This document shows, one piece after another, positions 42,278 to 49,016 of a stretch of 64,000 nt of DNA (position 1 is the first letter of the stretch; each line of letters begins with the position of its first letter). Under the pieces are notes generated by a model. It saw only the letters and a program-made list of their open reading frames with translations. It did no database searches and had not been told where the DNA came from. Origin of the DNA: Escherichia coli (GTDB lineage: Bacteria > Pseudomonadota > Gammaproteobacteria > Enterobacterales > Enterobacteriaceae); NCBI RefSeq assembly GCF_003334315.1, contig NZ_QOWR01000019.1, one strand, 5' to 3'. Position numbers and translations under genes: made by a program.

Positions 42278-42772
42278 ATGGTAGATAGCAAGAAGCGCCC
42301 TGGCAAAGATCTCGACCGTATCGATCGTAACATTCTTAATGAGTTGCAAAAGGATGGGCGTATTTCTAACGTCGAGCTTTCTAAACGTGTGGGACTTTCC
42401 CCAACGCCGTGCCTTGAGCGTGTGCGTCGGCTGGAAAGACAAGGGTTTATTCAGGGCTATACGGCGCTGCTTAACCCCCATTATCTGGATGCATCACTTC
42501 TGGTATTCGTTGAGATTACTCTGAATCGTGGCGCACCGGATGTGTTTGAACAATTCAATACCGCTGTACAAAAACTTGAAGAAATTCAGGAGTGTCATTT
42601 AGTATCCGGTGATTTCGACTACCTGTTGAAAACACGCGTGCCGGATATGTCAGCCTACCGTAAGTTGCTGGGGGAAACCCTGCTGCGTCTGCCTGGCGTC
42701 AATGACACACGGACATACGTTGTTATGGAAGAAGTCAAGCAGAGTAATCGTCTGGTTATTAAGACGCGCTAA
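42278..42772 (+). CDS. lrp: Leucine-responsive regulatory protein Lrp
   Basis: ORF track 42224..42772; start set to the ATG at 42278 (MVDSKKRPGKDLDRIDRNILNEL...), 164 aa. Confidence 0.95.
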   Translation: MVDSKKRPGKDLDRIDRNILNELQKDGRISNVELSKRVGLSPTPCLERVRRLERQGFIQGYTALLNPHYLDASLLVFVEITLNRGAPDVFEQFNTAVQKLEEIQECHLVSGDFDYLLKTRVPDMSAYRKLLGETLLRLPGVNDTRTYVVMEEVKQSNRLVIKTR

Positions 42773-42906: not shown

Positions 42907-45900
42907 TTGAGCCAGGAATACACTGAAGACAAAGAAGTCACATTGACAAAGTTAAGTAGCGGCCGCCGCCTTCTGGAGGCGTTGCTGATCCTTATTGTCC
43001 TGTTTGCCGTCTGGTTGATGGCTGCCTTACTAAGCTTTAACCCTTCGGACCCCAGCTGGTCGCAAACGGCCTGGCATGAACCTATCCATAATTTAGGTGG
43101 GATGCCCGGTGCGTGGTTGGCAGATACGCTGTTCTTTATTTTTGGCGTGATGGCTTACACCATTCCCGTCATTATTGTCGGCGGTTGTTGGTTTGCCTGG
43201 CGTCATCAGTCCAGCGACGAATACATTGATTATTTTGCCGTTTCGCTACGCATCATTGGCGTTTTGGCGCTCATCCTTACCTCCTGTGGTCTGGCGGCAA
43301 TCAACGCTGACGATATCTGGTATTTTGCCTCCGGTGGCGTCATTGGCAGCTTACTAAGCACTACGCTACAACCACTGCTACACAGTAGCGGGGGAACTAT
43401 TGCGCTGCTCTGCGTTTGGGCAGCGGGCCTGACGTTGTTCACCGGTTGGTCATGGGTGACCATTGCTGAAAAACTCGGCGGCTGGATTTTAAACATTCTC
43501 ACCTTCGCCAGTAATCGTACCCGTCGCGATGATACCTGGGTCGATGAAGATGAGTATGAAGACGACGAAGAGTATGAAGATGAAAATCACGGCAAACAGC
43601 ATGAATCACGCCGTGCCCGTATTCTTCGCGGCGCGCTAGCGCGTCGTAAACGGTTGGCGGAAAAATTCATTAATCCGATGGGGCGGCAAACAGACGCTGC
43701 GTTGTTCTCCGGTAAGCGGATGGATGATGACGAAGAGATTACCTACACTGCACGCGGTGTGGCTGCCGACCCGGACGACGTCCTATTTTCGGGCAATCGT
43801 GCAACGCAGCCAGAATATGACGAATACGATCCATTATTAAACGGTGCGCCAATTACCGAACCTGTCGCTGTAGCAGCTGCTGCTACCACGGCGACACAAA
43901 GCTGGGCTGCGCCGGTTGAACCTGTGACTCAGACGCCGCCTGTTGCCTCTGTTGATGTTCCACCTGCGCAACCTACAGTAGCCTGGCAGCCTGTACCGGG
44001 TCCACAAACGGGAGAGCCGGTTATTGCTCCTGCACCGGAAGGTTACCCACAGCAGTCACAATATGCGCAGCCTGCATTGCAATATAATGAGCCGCTGCAA
44101 CAACCAGTACAGCCGCAGCAGCCGTATTATGCACCTGCAGCTGAACAACCTGCGCAACAGCCGTATTATGCCCCTGCGCCAGAACAACCGGTGGCAGGTA
44201 ACGCCTGGCAAGCCGAAGAGCAGCAATCCACTTTTGCTCCACAGTCTACATACCAGACTGAGCAAACTTATCAGCAGCCAGCCGCTCAGGAGCCGTTGTA
44301 CCAACAGCCGCAACCCGTTGAACAGCAGCCTGTTGTGGAGCCTGAACCCGTTGTAGAAGAGACAAAACCCGCGCGTCCGCCGCTTTACTACTTTGAAGAA
44401 GTTGAAGAGAAGCGAGCCCGTGAACGTGAACAACTTGCGGCCTGGTATCAACCGATTCCAGAACCGGTTAAAGAACCAGAACCGATCAAATCTTCGCTGA
44501 AAGCACCTTCTGTTGCAGCAGTACCTCCAGTAGAAGCCGCTGCCGCTGTTTCCCCGCTGGCATCTGGCGTGAAAAAAGCGACACTGGCGACGGGGGCTGC
44601 CGCAACCGTTGCCGCGCCAGTCTTCAGTCTGGCAAATAGCGGTGGACCGCGTCCTCAGGTCAAAGAGGGGATTGGTCCGCAGTTGCCACGACCGAAACGT
44701 ATCCGCGTGCCAACTCGTCGTGAACTGGCGTCTTACGGTATTAAGCTGCCCTCACAGCGTGCGGCGGAAGAAAAAGCCCGTGAAGCCCAGCGCAATCAGT
44801 ACGATTCTGGCGATCAGTACAACGATGATGAAATCGATGCGATGCAGCAGGATGAACTGGCACGTCAGTTCGCCCAGACACAGCAGCAACGCTATGGCGA
44901 ACAGTATCAACATGATGTGCCCGTAAACGCAGAAGATGCAGATGCTGCGGCAGAGGCTGAACTGGCTCGTCAGTTTGCGCAAACTCAACAACAACGTTAT
45001 TCCGGCGAACAACCGGCTGGGGCGAATCCGTTCTCGCTGGATGATTTTGAATTTTCGCCAATGAAAGCGTTGCTGGATGATGGTCCACACGAACCGTTGT
45101 TTACGCCAATTGTTGAACCTGTACAGCAGCCGCAACAACCGGTTGCACCGCAGCAGCAATATCAGCAGCCGCAACAACCAGTTCCGCCGCAGCCGCAGTA
45201 TCAGCAGCCACAACAGCCGGTTGCGCCGCAGCCACAATATCAGCAGCCGCAACAACCGGTTGCGCCACAGCAGCAATATCAGCAGCCGCAACAACCGGTT
45301 GCGCCGCAGCAGCAGTATCAGCAGCCACAACAGCCAGTTGCGCCACAACCGCAGGATACCCTGCTTCATCCGCTGTTGATGCGTAATGGCGACAGCCGTC
45401 CGTTGCATAAACCGACGACGCCGCTGCCTTCTCTGGATTTGCTGACACCGCCGCCGAGCGAAGTGGAGCCGGTAGATACCTTTGCGCTTGAACAAATGGC
45501 TCGTCTGGTGGAAGCGCGTCTGGCTGATTTCCGTATTAAAGCCGATGTCGTCAATTACTCTCCGGGGCCGGTTATCACTCGCTTTGAACTTAACCTGGCT
45601 CCTGGCGTAAAAGCGGCGCGCATTTCTAACTTGTCACGGGACCTTGCCCGTTCACTTTCGACGGTGGCGGTGCGTGTCGTTGAAGTTATTCCTGGCAAAC
45701 CCTATGTAGGTCTGGAGTTACCAAATAAAAAACGACAAACCGTTTATCTGCGCGAAGTTTTGGATAACGCCAAATTCCGCGATAATCCGTCGCCATTAAC
45801 CGTGGTGCTGGGTAAAGATATCGCCGGTGAGCCGGTGGTTGCCGATCTGGCGAAAATGCCGCACTTGTTGGTTGCGGGGACTACCGGTTCCGGTAAATCT

Positions 45901-46896
45901 GTCGGTGTGAACGCGATGATCCTGAGCATGCTTTATAAAGCACAGCCAGAAGATGTGCGTTTCATCATGATCGACCCGAAAATGCTGGAGCTTTCGGTGT
46001 ATGAAGGCATTCCGCACCTGTTAACGGAAGTCGTTACTGATATGAAAGATGCCGCCAACGCGCTGCGCTGGTGTGTTAACGAGATGGAGCGTCGGTATAA
46101 ACTGATGTCTGCGCTGGGTGTGCGTAATCTGGCGGGTTATAACGAAAAAATTGCTGAAGCCGATCGCATGATGCGTCCGATTCCAGACCCGTACTGGAAG
46201 CCGGGTGACAGTATGGATGCCCAGCATCCGGTGCTGAAAAAAGAACCATACATTGTGGTGTTGGTTGACGAATTTGCCGACCTGATGATGACGGTAGGTA
46301 AAAAAGTGGAAGAGCTGATAGCACGTCTGGCGCAAAAAGCCCGTGCCGCGGGTATCCACCTCGTACTGGCAACTCAGCGTCCATCGGTTGATGTTATTAC
46401 TGGTCTGATTAAAGCGAATATTCCGACCCGTATCGCCTTTACCGTATCCAGTAAGATTGACTCACGTACCATTCTTGATCAGGCTGGCGCGGAATCACTG
46501 CTGGGGATGGGGGATATGCTCTACTCTGGGCCGAACTCCACGTTGCCGGTACGTGTCCATGGTGCTTTTGTTCGCGATCAGGAAGTTCATGCCGTGGTGC
46601 AGGACTGGAAAGCGCGTGGTCGCCCACAGTATGTTGATGGCATCACTTCCGACAGTGAAAGCGAAGGTGGCGCGGGCGGTTTCGATGGCGCTGAAGAACT
46701 GGATCCGTTGTTCGATCAGGCGGTGCAGTTTGTCACTGAAAAACGCAAAGCGTCAATTTCTGGCGTACAGCGTCAGTTCCGCATTGGTTATAACCGTGCA
46801 GCGCGTATTATCGAACAGATGGAAGCGCAGGGGATTGTCAGCGAACAGGGGCACAACGGTAATCGTGAAGTGCTGGCCCCACCGCCGTTTGACTAA
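42907..46896 (+). CDS. ftsK: DNA translocase FtsK
   Basis: 1329-aa ORF: N-terminal membrane domain, long Pro/Gln-rich linker, C-terminal RecA-like motor ([12 protein letters not shown]) and gamma domain. Confidence 0.95.
45124..45357 (+). repeat. ftsK: Six tandem 39-bp repeats encoding the [10 protein letters not shown](Q/P)QY module of the FtsK linker
   Basis: Near-identical units CAGCAGCCGCAACAACCGGTTGCGCCGCAGCAGCAATAT repeated head-to-tail; the protein shows [14 protein letters not shown] six times. A second duplicated module ([14 protein letters not shown]) lies at about 44854-45000. Confidence 0.85.
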
Positions 46897-47050: not shown

Positions 47051-47662
47051 ATGAAAAAAATTGCCATCACCTGTGCATTACTCTCAAGCTTAGTAGCAAG
47101 CAGCGTTTGGGCTGATGCCGCAAGCGATCTGAAAAGCCGCCTGGATAAAGTCAGCAGCTTCCACGCCAGCTTCACACAAAAAGTGACTGATGGTAGCGGC
47201 GCGGCGGTGCAGGAAGGTCAGGGCGATCTGTGGGTGAAACGTCCAAACTTATTCAACTGGCATATGACACAACCTGATGAAAGCATTCTGGTTTCTGACG
47301 GTAAAACACTGTGGTTCTATAACCCGTTCGTTGAGCAAGCTACGGCAACCTGGCTGAAAGATGCCACCGGTAATACGCCGTTTATGCTGATTGCCCGCAA
47401 CCAGTCCAGCGACTGGCAGCAGTACAATATCAAACAGAATGGCGATGACTTTGTCCTGACGCCGAAAGCCAGCAATGGCAATCTGAAGCAGTTCACCATT
47501 AACGTGGGACGTGATGGCACAATCCATCAGTTTAGCGCGGTGGAGCAGGACGATCAGCGCAGCAGTTATCAACTGAAATCCCAGCAAAATGGGGCTGTGG
47601 ATGCAGCGAAATTTACCTTCACCCCGCCGCAAGGCGTCACGGTAGATGATCAACGTAAGTAG
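47051..47662 (+). CDS. lolA: Outer-membrane lipoprotein carrier protein LolA
   Basis: ORF track 47048..47662; annotated from the second ATG ([21 protein letters not shown], signal peptide), 203 aa. Confidence 0.92.
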
Positions 47663-47672
47663 AGGCACCTGA

Positions 47673-49016
47673 GTGAGCAATCTGTCGCTCGATTTTTCGG
47701 ATAATACTTTTCAACCTCTGGCCGCGCGTATGCGGCCAGAAAATTTAGCACAGTATATCGGCCAGCAACATTTGCTGGCTGCGGGGAAGCCGCTGCCGCG
47801 CGCTATCGAAGCCGGGCATTTGCATTCGATGATCCTCTGGGGGCCACCGGGTACCGGCAAAACAACCCTCGCTGAAGTGATTGCCCGCTATGCGAACGCT
47901 GATGTGGAACGTATTTCTGCCGTCACCTCTGGCGTGAAAGAGATTCGCGAGGCGATCGAGCGCGCCCGGCAAAACCGCAATGCAGGTCGCCGCACTATTC
48001 TTTTTGTTGACGAAGTTCACCGTTTCAACAAAAGCCAGCAGGATGCATTTCTGCCACATATTGAAGACGGCACCATCACTTTTATTGGCGCAACCACTGA
48101 AAACCCGTCGTTTGAGCTTAATTCGGCACTGCTTTCCCGTGCCCGTGTCTATCTGTTGAAATCCCTGAGTACAGAGGATATTGAGCAAGTACTAACTCAG
48201 GCGATGGAAGACAAAACCCGTGGCTATGGTGGTCAGGATATTGTTCTGCCAGATGAAACACGACGCGCCATTGCTGAACTGGTGAATGGCGACGCGCGCC
48301 GGGCGTTAAATACGCTGGAAATGATGGCGGATATGGCCGAAGTCGATGATAGCGGTAAGCGGGTCCTGAAGCCTGAATTACTGACCGAAATCGCCGGTGA
48401 ACGTAGCGCCCGCTTTGATAACAAAGGCGATCGCTTTTACGATCTCATTTCCGCACTGCATAAGTCGGTACGTGGTAGCGCACCCGATGCGGCGCTGTAC
48501 TGGTATGCGCGAATTATTACCGCTGGTGGCGATCCGTTATATGTCGCGCGTCGCTGTTTGGCGATAGCGTCTGAAGATGTGGGTAACGCTGATCCACGAG
48601 CGATGCAGGTGGCAATTGCGGCCTGGGATTGCTTTACTCGCGTTGGCCCGGCGGAAGGTGAACGCGCCATTGCTCAGGCGATTGTTTACCTGGCCTGCGC
48701 GCCAAAAAGCAACGCTGTCTACACTGCGTTTAAAGCCGCGCTGGCCGATGCTCGCGAACGCCCGGATTATGACGTACCGGTTCATTTGCGTAATGCGCCG
48801 ACGAAATTAATGAAGGAAATGGGCTACGGGCAGGAATATCGTTACGCTCATGATGAAGCAAACGCTTATGCTGCCGGTGAGGTTTACTTCCCGCCGGAAA
48901 TAGCACAAACACGCTATTATTTCCCGACAAACAGGGGCCTTGAAGGCAAGATTGGCGAAAAGCTCGCCTGGCTGGCTGAACAGGATCAAAATAGCCCCAT
49001 AAAACGCTACCGTTAA
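47673..49016 (+). CDS. rarA: Replication-associated recombination protein RarA (MgsA), AAA+ ATPase
   Basis: 447-aa ORF with GTG start; Walker [10 protein letters not shown]. Confidence 0.93.

Follow-up and report, generated by a model that had tools for sequence, protein, structure and literature searches.

The linker of FtsK is a textbook disordered tether, and the question raised by the present locus is whether a tandem array of 39-bp units lying in this part of the coding sequence is a genuine and variable feature of Escherichia coli and, if so, what its variation means for the protein. The stretch analyzed here (the window) comprises 64,000 nucleotides of the E. coli contig NZ_QOWR01000019.1, and its ORF listing places ftsK at 42907–46896 on the plus strand, with a TTG start and a product of 1329 residues, the DNA translocase FtsK. 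The assignment is confirmed by the NCBIfam equivalog NF007615 ("DNA translocase FtsK"), which is matched with a score of 3048 bits (cut-off, 1566), aligning FtsK residues 1–1329 with profile positions 1–1355. A Pfam search run on the C-terminal 829 residues (residue numbers are those of the fragment plus an offset of 500) located the start of the motor, FtsK_alpha (PF17854), at residues 840–940 (fragment residues 340–440; 45424–45726, plus strand; E = 1e-29), the FtsK_SpoIIIE ATPase (PF01580) at residues 948–1161 and FtsK_gamma (PF09397) at residues 1264–1324. The enterobacterial gene order lrp-ftsK-lolA-rarA is found in the window, with lrp (42278–42772) upstream of ftsK, and lolA (47051–47662) and rarA (47673–49016) downstream; it is also found in the compared E. 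coli loci whose stretch extends beyond ftsK, those taken with 300-bp flanks covering lrp and ftsK only. The length of 1329 residues is that of K-12 FtsK (PMC2800217), as had been stated in the original prediction, and ftsK likewise measures 3990 nt in the E. coli record L107.

The array, hereafter array B, occupies 45124–45357 on the plus strand and consists of six head-to-tail 39-bp units starting at 45124, 45163, 45202, 45241, 45280 and 45319. Tandem Repeats Finder delimits it at 45124–45344 with a period of 39, 5.7 copies, 88% matches and no indels, and also reads it at a period of 117 (94%), while a repeat search finds the copies in register every 39 bp. The sixth unit closes with GAT (Asp) where the other units close with TAT (Tyr), and the strict array is therefore limited to 45124–45354 (231 bp). 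Identity at a lag of 39 bp amounts to 0.875, compared with 0.506 ± 0.033 (maximum 0.63, z = 11) when its own codons were shuffled 10,000 times, and the periodicity is thus more than the Pro/Gln-rich composition alone explains. The six units that had been predicted are confirmed. At the protein level, each unit encodes a 13-residue peptide ending in (Q/P)QY, repeated six times over FtsK residues 740–816 and followed by Asp817; Pro or Gln make up 79% of the residues, and the array ends 24 residues before FtsK_alpha. The NF007615 match, the Pfam layout and published descriptions of the protein (PMC2800217, PMC5357621) place it, as proposed, in the Pro/Gln-rich linker. It is part of the FtsK/SpoIIIE linker domain (FtsKL), which is described as unstructured and PQ-rich, with a length that varies between species (PMC5357621), being of ~650 residues in E. 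coli, ~200 in Vibrio and ~125 in Pseudomonas (PMC5357621, PMC2800217, PMC2673442). Whereas these papers treat differences between species, those considered here occur within one species, in 13-residue steps and in two defined arrays. The AlphaFold2 model of array B is coil devoid of secondary structure, with a pLDDT of 34–42, which is weak evidence of disorder because the underlying alignment had just 8 sequences, and the search of the C-terminal 829 residues returned no Pfam family over the array. Long antisense or out-of-frame ORFs crossing it (e.g. 44752–45495, minus strand, 247 aa) were rejected, since they are stop-free artefacts of CAG/CCG-rich repeats within a full-length FtsK gene.

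Array B is already known as a typing locus. Both published primers of CVN001 (sequences in Table 1 of PMC8143711) match the window exactly and flank the array, the forward primer AACCGGCTGGGGCGAATCC at 45011–45029 on the plus strand (one occurrence in the window, none in shuffles) and the reverse primer GGCGGCGGTGTCAGCAAATC at 45436–45455 on the minus strand; array B and CVN001 are therefore the same locus. Indeed, CVN001, which belongs to the generic E. coli MLVA scheme (Lindstedt et al. 2007; GECM-7/GECM-10), has the same repeat length of 39 bp and a copy number that is polymorphic among E. coli isolates. The amplicon in the window (45011–45455) measures 445 bp, which the published formula, (product size − 250)/39, converts into CVN001 allele 5; the numbering alone differs, the sequence containing six units. 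The literature found to name CVN001 does not state its location in ftsK. The finding is thus correct but ordinary, the locus having been in use as a genotyping marker since 2007, and has little import beyond bookkeeping. A VNTR with a 39-bp unit within ftsK is also described in Salmonella under the names STTR7/SENTR2 (PMC2430564), and sequence comparison indicates that it is the ortholog of array B. The site orthologous to its reverse primer (PMC2430564) lies at 45375–45393 on the minus strand, with 1 mismatch and 18 bp downstream of array B; the forward primer has more than 3 mismatches to the window by visual reading. In S. enterica arizonae the same peptide unit is found at the same position, after an EPLFTPGVMPE flank. 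The 45-bp tolA repeat (SENTR1), another enterobacterial typing minisatellite, resembles array B in having a unit that is a multiple of 3 bp and in lying in a low-complexity spacer of an envelope or division protein, variable between lineages with little diversity within clones, but concerns another gene and another unit.

Short reads can lead to errors in the assembly of repeats 231 bp long, so that the array or its copy number might have arisen from collapse or expansion during assembly, and a collapse had indeed been feared at the outset. This worry does not apply to the window: its unit string, ABCDEF, is identical in a complete genome, and the 521 bp around array B match many complete genomes at 100% identity and 1473 genomes at 99% or more. 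Moreover, the 88% identity between units lets them be placed uniquely, and the same locus has been resolved by independent PCR-based typing schemes. On the basis of the genome identity and the matching unit string, the assembly artefact was rejected and is extremely improbable.

Array B lengths were sized in a spread sample of 110 of the 5,426 complete E. coli genomes. They range from 114 to 309 bp, corresponding to 3 to 8 units, and fall into 11 length classes, with shares of 43% for 7 units, 35% for 6 units and 8% for 8 units in a collection, the RefSeq complete genomes, where clinical clones are over-represented; variants of +15 and +18 bp are also present. Beyond this sample, alleles of 11 units and of 213 bp were encountered. 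As an independent check, a 6-unit query aligned straight across the locus in 2353 of 5426 genomes (43%). The population figures rest on systematic sampling, with 51 to 60 rows taken from each search, and not on a full census. The Nei diversity of array B among the 110 genomes is 0.69, which fits the 5 alleles that placed CVN001 among the most polymorphic loci of one study; by comparison, STTR7/SENTR2 in S. Enteritidis has a higher number of copies (9.3 vs. six in the window) and a Nei D of 0.07 (3 alleles in 240 isolates), vs. 0.69 across the E. coli species. The comparison across genomes thus shows that array B is not invariant among diverse strains, and the proposal that its copy number varies and alters linker length is borne out by the 3 to 11 units observed. 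Among 10 aligned alleles, all differences in FtsK length map to array B and to a second array, array A, described below.

This variation occurs between lineages and is not rapid. All 60 O157:H7 genomes sampled have an identical span, an observation that concerns one clone and the total length from array A to array B only, and the sampled K-12 derivatives all have the allele sizes of the window. Synonymous divergence between units, moreover, reaches ~40% of sites, which also speaks against a fast hotspot. The term "variation hotspot", used in the original prediction, overstates the pace of change. The strain TR01, labelled O157:H7, which has 4 units in array A vs. 2 in the clone, was considered as a case of within-serotype instability and rejected, because its ftsK differs from that of the clone at 17 of 2200 flanking positions and is a different or recombinant allele. 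These data also bear on the idea that array B might be a contingency locus, i.e. a hypermutable repeat switching FtsK expression or function at high frequency. With the phase-variable loci of this kind (short coding SSRs) it shares the intragenic location of tandem repeats that change copy number by slippage and are polymorphic in the species. Unlike them, it is made of long imperfect units, only 88% alike, always keeps the frame, is stable within clones and provides no switch: the unit is of 13 codons and array length is divisible by 3 in 110 of 110 sampled genomes, which precludes on/off switching, and the O157:H7 spans do not differ. The sole frameshifted ftsK encountered, that of MRY15-117, whose span is not a multiple of 3, was examined as a frameshift caused by the array and rejected, the cause being a 1-nt deletion that falls at position 3603 of the gene, within the motor domain and outside the array. 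Phase variation was therefore rejected on frame conservation and clone stability, and is very unlikely.

The explanation that we favor, and regard as highly probable, is that array B, lying in the disordered Pro/Gln-rich linker of FtsK, is an in-frame coding minisatellite that undergoes rare changes by slippage or recombination and serves as a length-tolerant spacer. Each 39-bp unit adds 13 residues to the flexible tether between the N-terminal membrane domain, which is anchored at the septum, and the C-terminal DNA pump, a hexamer. Misaligned pairing of the repeats, through replication slippage or unequal homologous recombination, would result in the gain or loss of units; in-register events would involve ±39 bp or blocks of several units, and out-of-register events (+15, +18 or +21 bp) would use sub-repeats within the unit. 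Among the alleles, the unit string of E70, ABCDJ-OBCDJ-Z, reads as a window-like allele in which a block of 195 bp has been duplicated, and the 15-bp "QQPQY" units, like an insertion of 18 bp, arose out of register. Since the unit consists of complete codons, the frame is kept in every event and the motor is still made; since FtsK tolerates a wide range of lengths, alleles would persist and mark lineages; and since the units have diverged by ~12% in DNA, events would be rare and clones stable. Slippage or recombination is the mechanism that we infer from these patterns; neither Chi nor KOPS motifs, searched on both strands of ftsK as possible drivers of recombination, were found in the gene.

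The original prediction had missed a further VNTR of the linker, array A, which is likewise coding and made of 39-bp units. It is located at 44116–44193 on the plus strand (two units, residues 404–429; Tandem Repeats Finder gives a period of 39 and 1.9 copies) and is equally polymorphic, with 2, 3 and 4 units in 20, 21 and 18 of 60 genomes, respectively. Taking the window as reference, the total span from array A to array B differs by −39 to +234 bp, with three common sizes, and FtsK accordingly from 1316 to 1407 residues; the length of 1329 residues is found in about one quarter of the sampled complete genomes and that of 1368 residues is equally common. E. coli FtsK is thus not simply "a 1329-aa protein", and since its gene has two independent 39-bp VNTRs, such length differences are not errors for annotation or cgMLST pipelines to flag. 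Combinations of 2+6, 3+5 and 4+4 units (arrays A+B) each give 1329 residues, and these alleles of equal size prompted us to consider length compensation between the two arrays. It was rejected because the variance of the total (3171) exceeds the sum of the variances of A and B (2223), with an implied r of +0.43 whose bootstrap interval includes 0, in a comparison that involves three independently drawn samples and is confounded by phylogeny.

The sizes of the two arrays are relevant to a further possibility, namely that array copy number or total linker length is selected and sets the reach of the pump from the septum or the force passed to the divisome, in which case different lineages would carry functionally different alleles. 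Such tuning would agree with the position of array B, kept across Escherichia, Salmonella and Citrobacter, with the evidence, detailed below, that purifying selection acts strongly on the unit peptide, and with the confinement of all alleles seen to 3 to 11 units; in addition, linker mutations raise filamentation, and the linker has been proposed to couple translocation to divisome stability (PMC5357621). It is at odds with the broad range of A-to-B totals, with three common sizes, and with the lack of compensation between the arrays, as well as with the one allele-swap experiment found, in Salmonella, in which two strains exchanged an 84-bp linker indel without consequence for the single phenotype assayed, survival in egg white. 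We consider tuning of the tether unlikely, and the tract of array B would mainly be a length-tolerant spacer.

The peptide itself is conserved. The 35 distinct array B units encode 10 peptides only, with a pN/pS of 0.09 (pS = 0.41), and Tyr at unit position 13 is invariant in all of them. Counterparts at the same position exist in Citrobacter species as well as in S. enterica arizonae; in Serratia and in the isolate RIT691, the position is occupied by no more than a degenerate PQ-rich tract. The unit pattern also matched sequences from outside Enterobacteriaceae, namely from Erysipelotrichaceae, Lachnospiraceae, Ruminococcus and alphaproteobacterial MAGs; these encode unrelated YQQP-type low-complexity proteins and were discarded. 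The low pN/pS and the Tyr every 13 residues suggest that sequence matters, and a pure spacer therefore fits imperfectly. Because the peptide is near constant while the DNA has diverged, and because its retention immediately ahead of the motor predates the divergence of Escherichia, Salmonella and Citrobacter, the 13-residue unit could be a functional module, its copy-number alleles tuning FtsK reach or divisome coupling; with 3 to 11 units in array B and 2 to 4 in array A, lineages would then resolve chromosome dimers with different efficiency or timing. To our mind this is rather improbable. The same constraint on the peptide would suit a multivalent docking module, in which the unit would act as a motif for binding or self-association, copy number would set valency and sequence rather than length would be selected, and interactions with FtsQ, FtsL, FtsI and FtsZ have been reported for parts of the linker (PMC5357621). 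However, the array B segment has no known partner, the degenerate tracts of Serratia and RIT691 imply that the exact peptide is not required across Enterobacterales, and the codon-level constraint could equally reflect selection on composition or solubility, so that docking, too, appears doubtful.

Upstream of array B, the duplicated module that had been associated with it is real but lies outside the variable repeat system. Its two copies, at 44849–44895 (residues 649–663) and 44954–45000 (residues 684–698) on the plus strand, are 47 nt each and 81% identical; they are dispersed, 105 bp apart, and not head-to-tail. They are invariant among the 16 E. coli alleles compared, are conserved in Citrobacter, Salmonella and Serratia, and form a conserved pair of predicted helices (pLDDT 72–81 and 70–79, respectively). 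Natural ftsK alleles constitute a ready series for testing the roles of linker length and sequence, and include an in-frame deletion, 126 bp long in NZ_CP148366.1, of the block that leads from this module to array B (45025–45123, plus strand, residues 707–739) and is conserved across Enterobacteriaceae. In the one natural isolate with this deletion, L009, the left flank is joined to unit 1 of array B at a AACAACCGG microhomology.

The ORF at 42907–46896 on the + strand (1329 aa) corresponds to ftsK: it matches, over its full length, the NCBIfam equivalog for the DNA translocase FtsK (3048 bits vs. a cut-off of 1566) and is neighbored in the window by lrp upstream and by lolA and rarA downstream. 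It carries in frame, on the same strand, six 39-bp units arranged head-to-tail at 45124–45357 (hereafter array B), corresponding to FtsK residues 740–816, of which 79% are proline or glutamine. Tandem Repeats Finder describes array B by a period of 39, 5.7 copies, 88% matches and 0 indels, with an alternative period of 117 giving 94% matches; a separate repeat search places the copies in register at each 39 bp, and sub-repeats of 18 and 21 bp are found inside the units. The terminal residue is Asp in unit 6 and Tyr in the other units. Identity at a lag of 39 is 0.875; when the codons of the array are shuffled 10,000 times it is 0.506 ± 0.033 (maximum 0.63, z = 11), so composition does not account for the periodicity. 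The repeat search, the in-frame reading and the equivalog match thus establish that the six near-identical tandem units of the original prediction are real and lie within the Pro/Gln-rich linker of FtsK. Two stop-free ORFs in other frames run across the array (44752–45495, − strand, 247 aa, and 45077–45379, + strand, 100 aa); they were rejected as genes, since the CAG/CCG-rich repeat produces them as artefacts.

Pfam assigns residues 840–940 to FtsK_alpha, 948–1161 to the SpoIIIE ATPase and 1264–1324 to the gamma domain, so that array B stops 24 residues ahead of the motor; no Pfam family in this search of FtsK covers the array residues. The FtsK linker has been described as unstructured, Pro/Gln-rich and of a length that differs between species (PMC5357621; PMC2800217; PMC2673442). 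An AlphaFold2 model of residues 620–900, in which the array is predicted without secondary structure (pLDDT 34–42), agrees with this description, but lends it weak support because the underlying alignment of 8 ortholog sequences is shallow.

A 521-bp query spanning array B finds a match in all 5,426 complete E. coli genomes; the alignment runs straight across the array in 2,353 of them (43%) and breaks at the array edges in the remainder. Array lengths were obtained with a query joining the two unique flanks, as the record span minus 340, for 110 measurable genomes taken from two spread samples that differed in step size. Lengths of 270 bp (7 units; 47 genomes, 43%) and 231 bp (6 units; 38 genomes, 35%) predominate, followed by 309 bp (8 units; 9 genomes) and 246 bp (6 units + 15 bp; 7 genomes). 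Arrays of 114 bp (3 units) and 168 bp (4 units + 15 bp) occur in two genomes each, those of 153 bp (4 units), 192 bp (5 units), 207 bp (5 units + 15 bp), 249 bp (6 units + 18 bp) and 285 bp (7 units + 15 bp) in one each. Each of the 110 lengths is divisible by 3, and the Nei diversity amounts to 0.69. Together, the six-unit classes make up 42% of the sample, which agrees with the 43% obtained independently from straight alignments. The six units of the window are thus not the norm but rank second in frequency. Outside this sample we found a 213-bp allele and the longest one seen, of 11 units (426 bp, FtsK of 1407 aa), in strain E70 (NZ_CM173937.1). Copy number, and with it linker length, indeed differs between strains, and the original prediction was correct in both observation and interpretation.

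Array B is the same locus as CVN001, the first locus of a generic E. coli MLVA scheme, amplified with primers AACCGGCTGGGGCGAATCC and GGCGGCGGTGTCAGCAAATC and scored as (product size − 250)/39 (PMC8143711). Both primers have exact, single matches in the window, at 45011–45029 (+ strand) and 45436–45455 (− strand), on the two sides of the array; the amplicon of 445 bp is scored as allele 5. In GECM-10 type names such as G06 and G07 the number is taken from the CVN001 allele (PMC3877011), and under the CVN001 formula these types would correspond to our 7- and 8-unit classes. The orthologous locus in Salmonella is STTR7/SENTR2, a 39-bp VNTR in ftsK (PMC2430564), whose reverse primer matches 45375–45393 with one mismatch. 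An 84-bp indel has been described in the same Salmonella tract, and swapping it between two strains left egg-white survival unchanged (PMC6137255).

Among 10 aligned alleles, all FtsK length differences fall within two places, array B and a second 39-bp coding VNTR (array A, 44116–44193), absent from the original prediction, with a 13-residue repeat, present in 2 units in the window; its unit number is 2, 3 and 4 in 20, 21 and 18 of 60 genomes, respectively, with an odd length in one. The stretch just upstream of array A (44087–44127) is 71–83% identical to the units of array B, which suggests that the two arrays may share a common origin. The duplicated module also noted upstream of array B (44849–44895 and 44954–45000) was confirmed as a 14-residue motif in two dispersed copies, and it is not a source of variation: its sequence does not vary among the E. 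coli alleles examined and is kept in Citrobacter, Salmonella and Serratia. Both copies are predicted to be helical (pLDDT 70–81, from the 8-sequence alignment), and the pair may be an uncharacterised functional motif in the linker.

Compared with the window, the span across both arrays is between 39 bp shorter and 234 bp longer, which implies FtsK proteins of 1316–1407 aa; the modes are 1329 (16/60), 1355 (11/60) and 1368 aa (17/60), and combinations of 2+6, 3+5 and 4+4 units (arrays A+B) each yield 1329 aa. A trade-off between the two arrays that would keep the linker at a constant length was considered and dropped, because the total span has a variance of 3171, above the 2223 obtained by adding the variances of the two arrays. 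This implies a correlation of +0.43, with a bootstrap interval that includes zero, in a rough test using three independently drawn samples and confounded by phylogeny.

Each distinct 39-bp unit was typed in 15 alleles. The window reads ABCDEF, as does a comparison record of K-12 size (L107); both arrays are identical in the two, and 15 of 3,948 ftsK positions differ; the window therefore does not come from K-12. Its ftsK flanks are 100% identical to those of strain 14EC001 over 2,400 nt. E70 reads ABCDJ-OBCDJ-Z, a five-unit block duplication of 195 bp, and in several alleles there is an 18-bp insertion or a 15-bp "QQPQY" unit, as expected if pairing occurs out of register via the 18- and 21-bp sub-repeats. 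The natural isolate NZ_CP148366.1 has a 126-bp in-frame deletion, orthologous to 45016–45141, in which the left flank is fused with unit 1 at the microhomology AACAACCGG; it takes out a conserved 33-residue block together with the forward-primer site of CVN001. The annotation of this isolate gives an intact ftsK (1326 aa), and the isolate would be scored as a null allele in MLVA. Such traces fit slippage or unequal recombination as the processes that would change the unit number.

Within the clones sampled, the locus hardly moves. The best 60 matches to O157:H7's own ftsK flanks, nearly all labelled O157 or O157:H7, have the same span of 3,678 bp, the sampled K-12 derivatives all share the window's allele sizes, and at the orthologous locus in S. 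Enteritidis Nei diversity is only 0.07 (PMC2430564). Copy-number change appears to be slow; the predicted hotspot holds in that copy number is not invariant across strains, but not as a fast one. TR01 (NZ_CP033605.1), labelled O157:H7, has 4 array-A units and a 213-bp array B; it was rejected as a slippage variant of the clone because its flanks differ at 17 of 2,200 positions, a different ftsK background, and its allele could reflect ftsK recombination or an atypical or mislabelled strain. Array B thus represents the known CVN001 locus, an in-frame coding VNTR that apparently evolves slowly and lies in a probably disordered linker of FtsK; its readings as a fast hotspot, switch or artefact were rejected. 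In MRY15-117 (NZ_AP017617.1), the annotation marks ftsK as frameshifted; the frameshift comes from loss of 1 nt at ftsK position 3603, in the motor domain and outside both arrays, and may reflect either a true pseudogene or an error in sequencing. The genome searches also gave eight ftsK matches on records labelled plasmid, probably mislabelled replicons or chromosomal segments on plasmids.

What remains of interest is the strong constraint on the repeat peptide. The 35 distinct full-length DNA units encode only 10 peptides, with Tyr invariant at position 13, and the pooled pS is 0.41 and pN 0.038 (ratio 0.09). It follows that the units are old, with much divergence at silent positions, which should suppress slippage. 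The unit peptide, or at least its composition, is under purifying selection, and the natural allele series could be used to test effects of linker length and sequence. Scanning the unit pattern in one genome per species revealed 39-bp-spaced arrays at the same place of FtsK in E. coli, S. enterica arizonae and several Citrobacter species, and only a degenerate PQ-rich tract in Serratia and one unclassified enterobacterium. Matches in Firmicutes and other MAGs, from gut and rumen (Erysipelotrichaceae, Lachnospiraceae, Ruminococcus and an alphaproteobacterium; L026, L031, L089, L077 and L033), were set aside: they code for unrelated low-complexity proteins of YQQP type, whose YQQPQQPV-type tandem repeats look like convergent Pro/Gln/Tyr low-complexity sequence.
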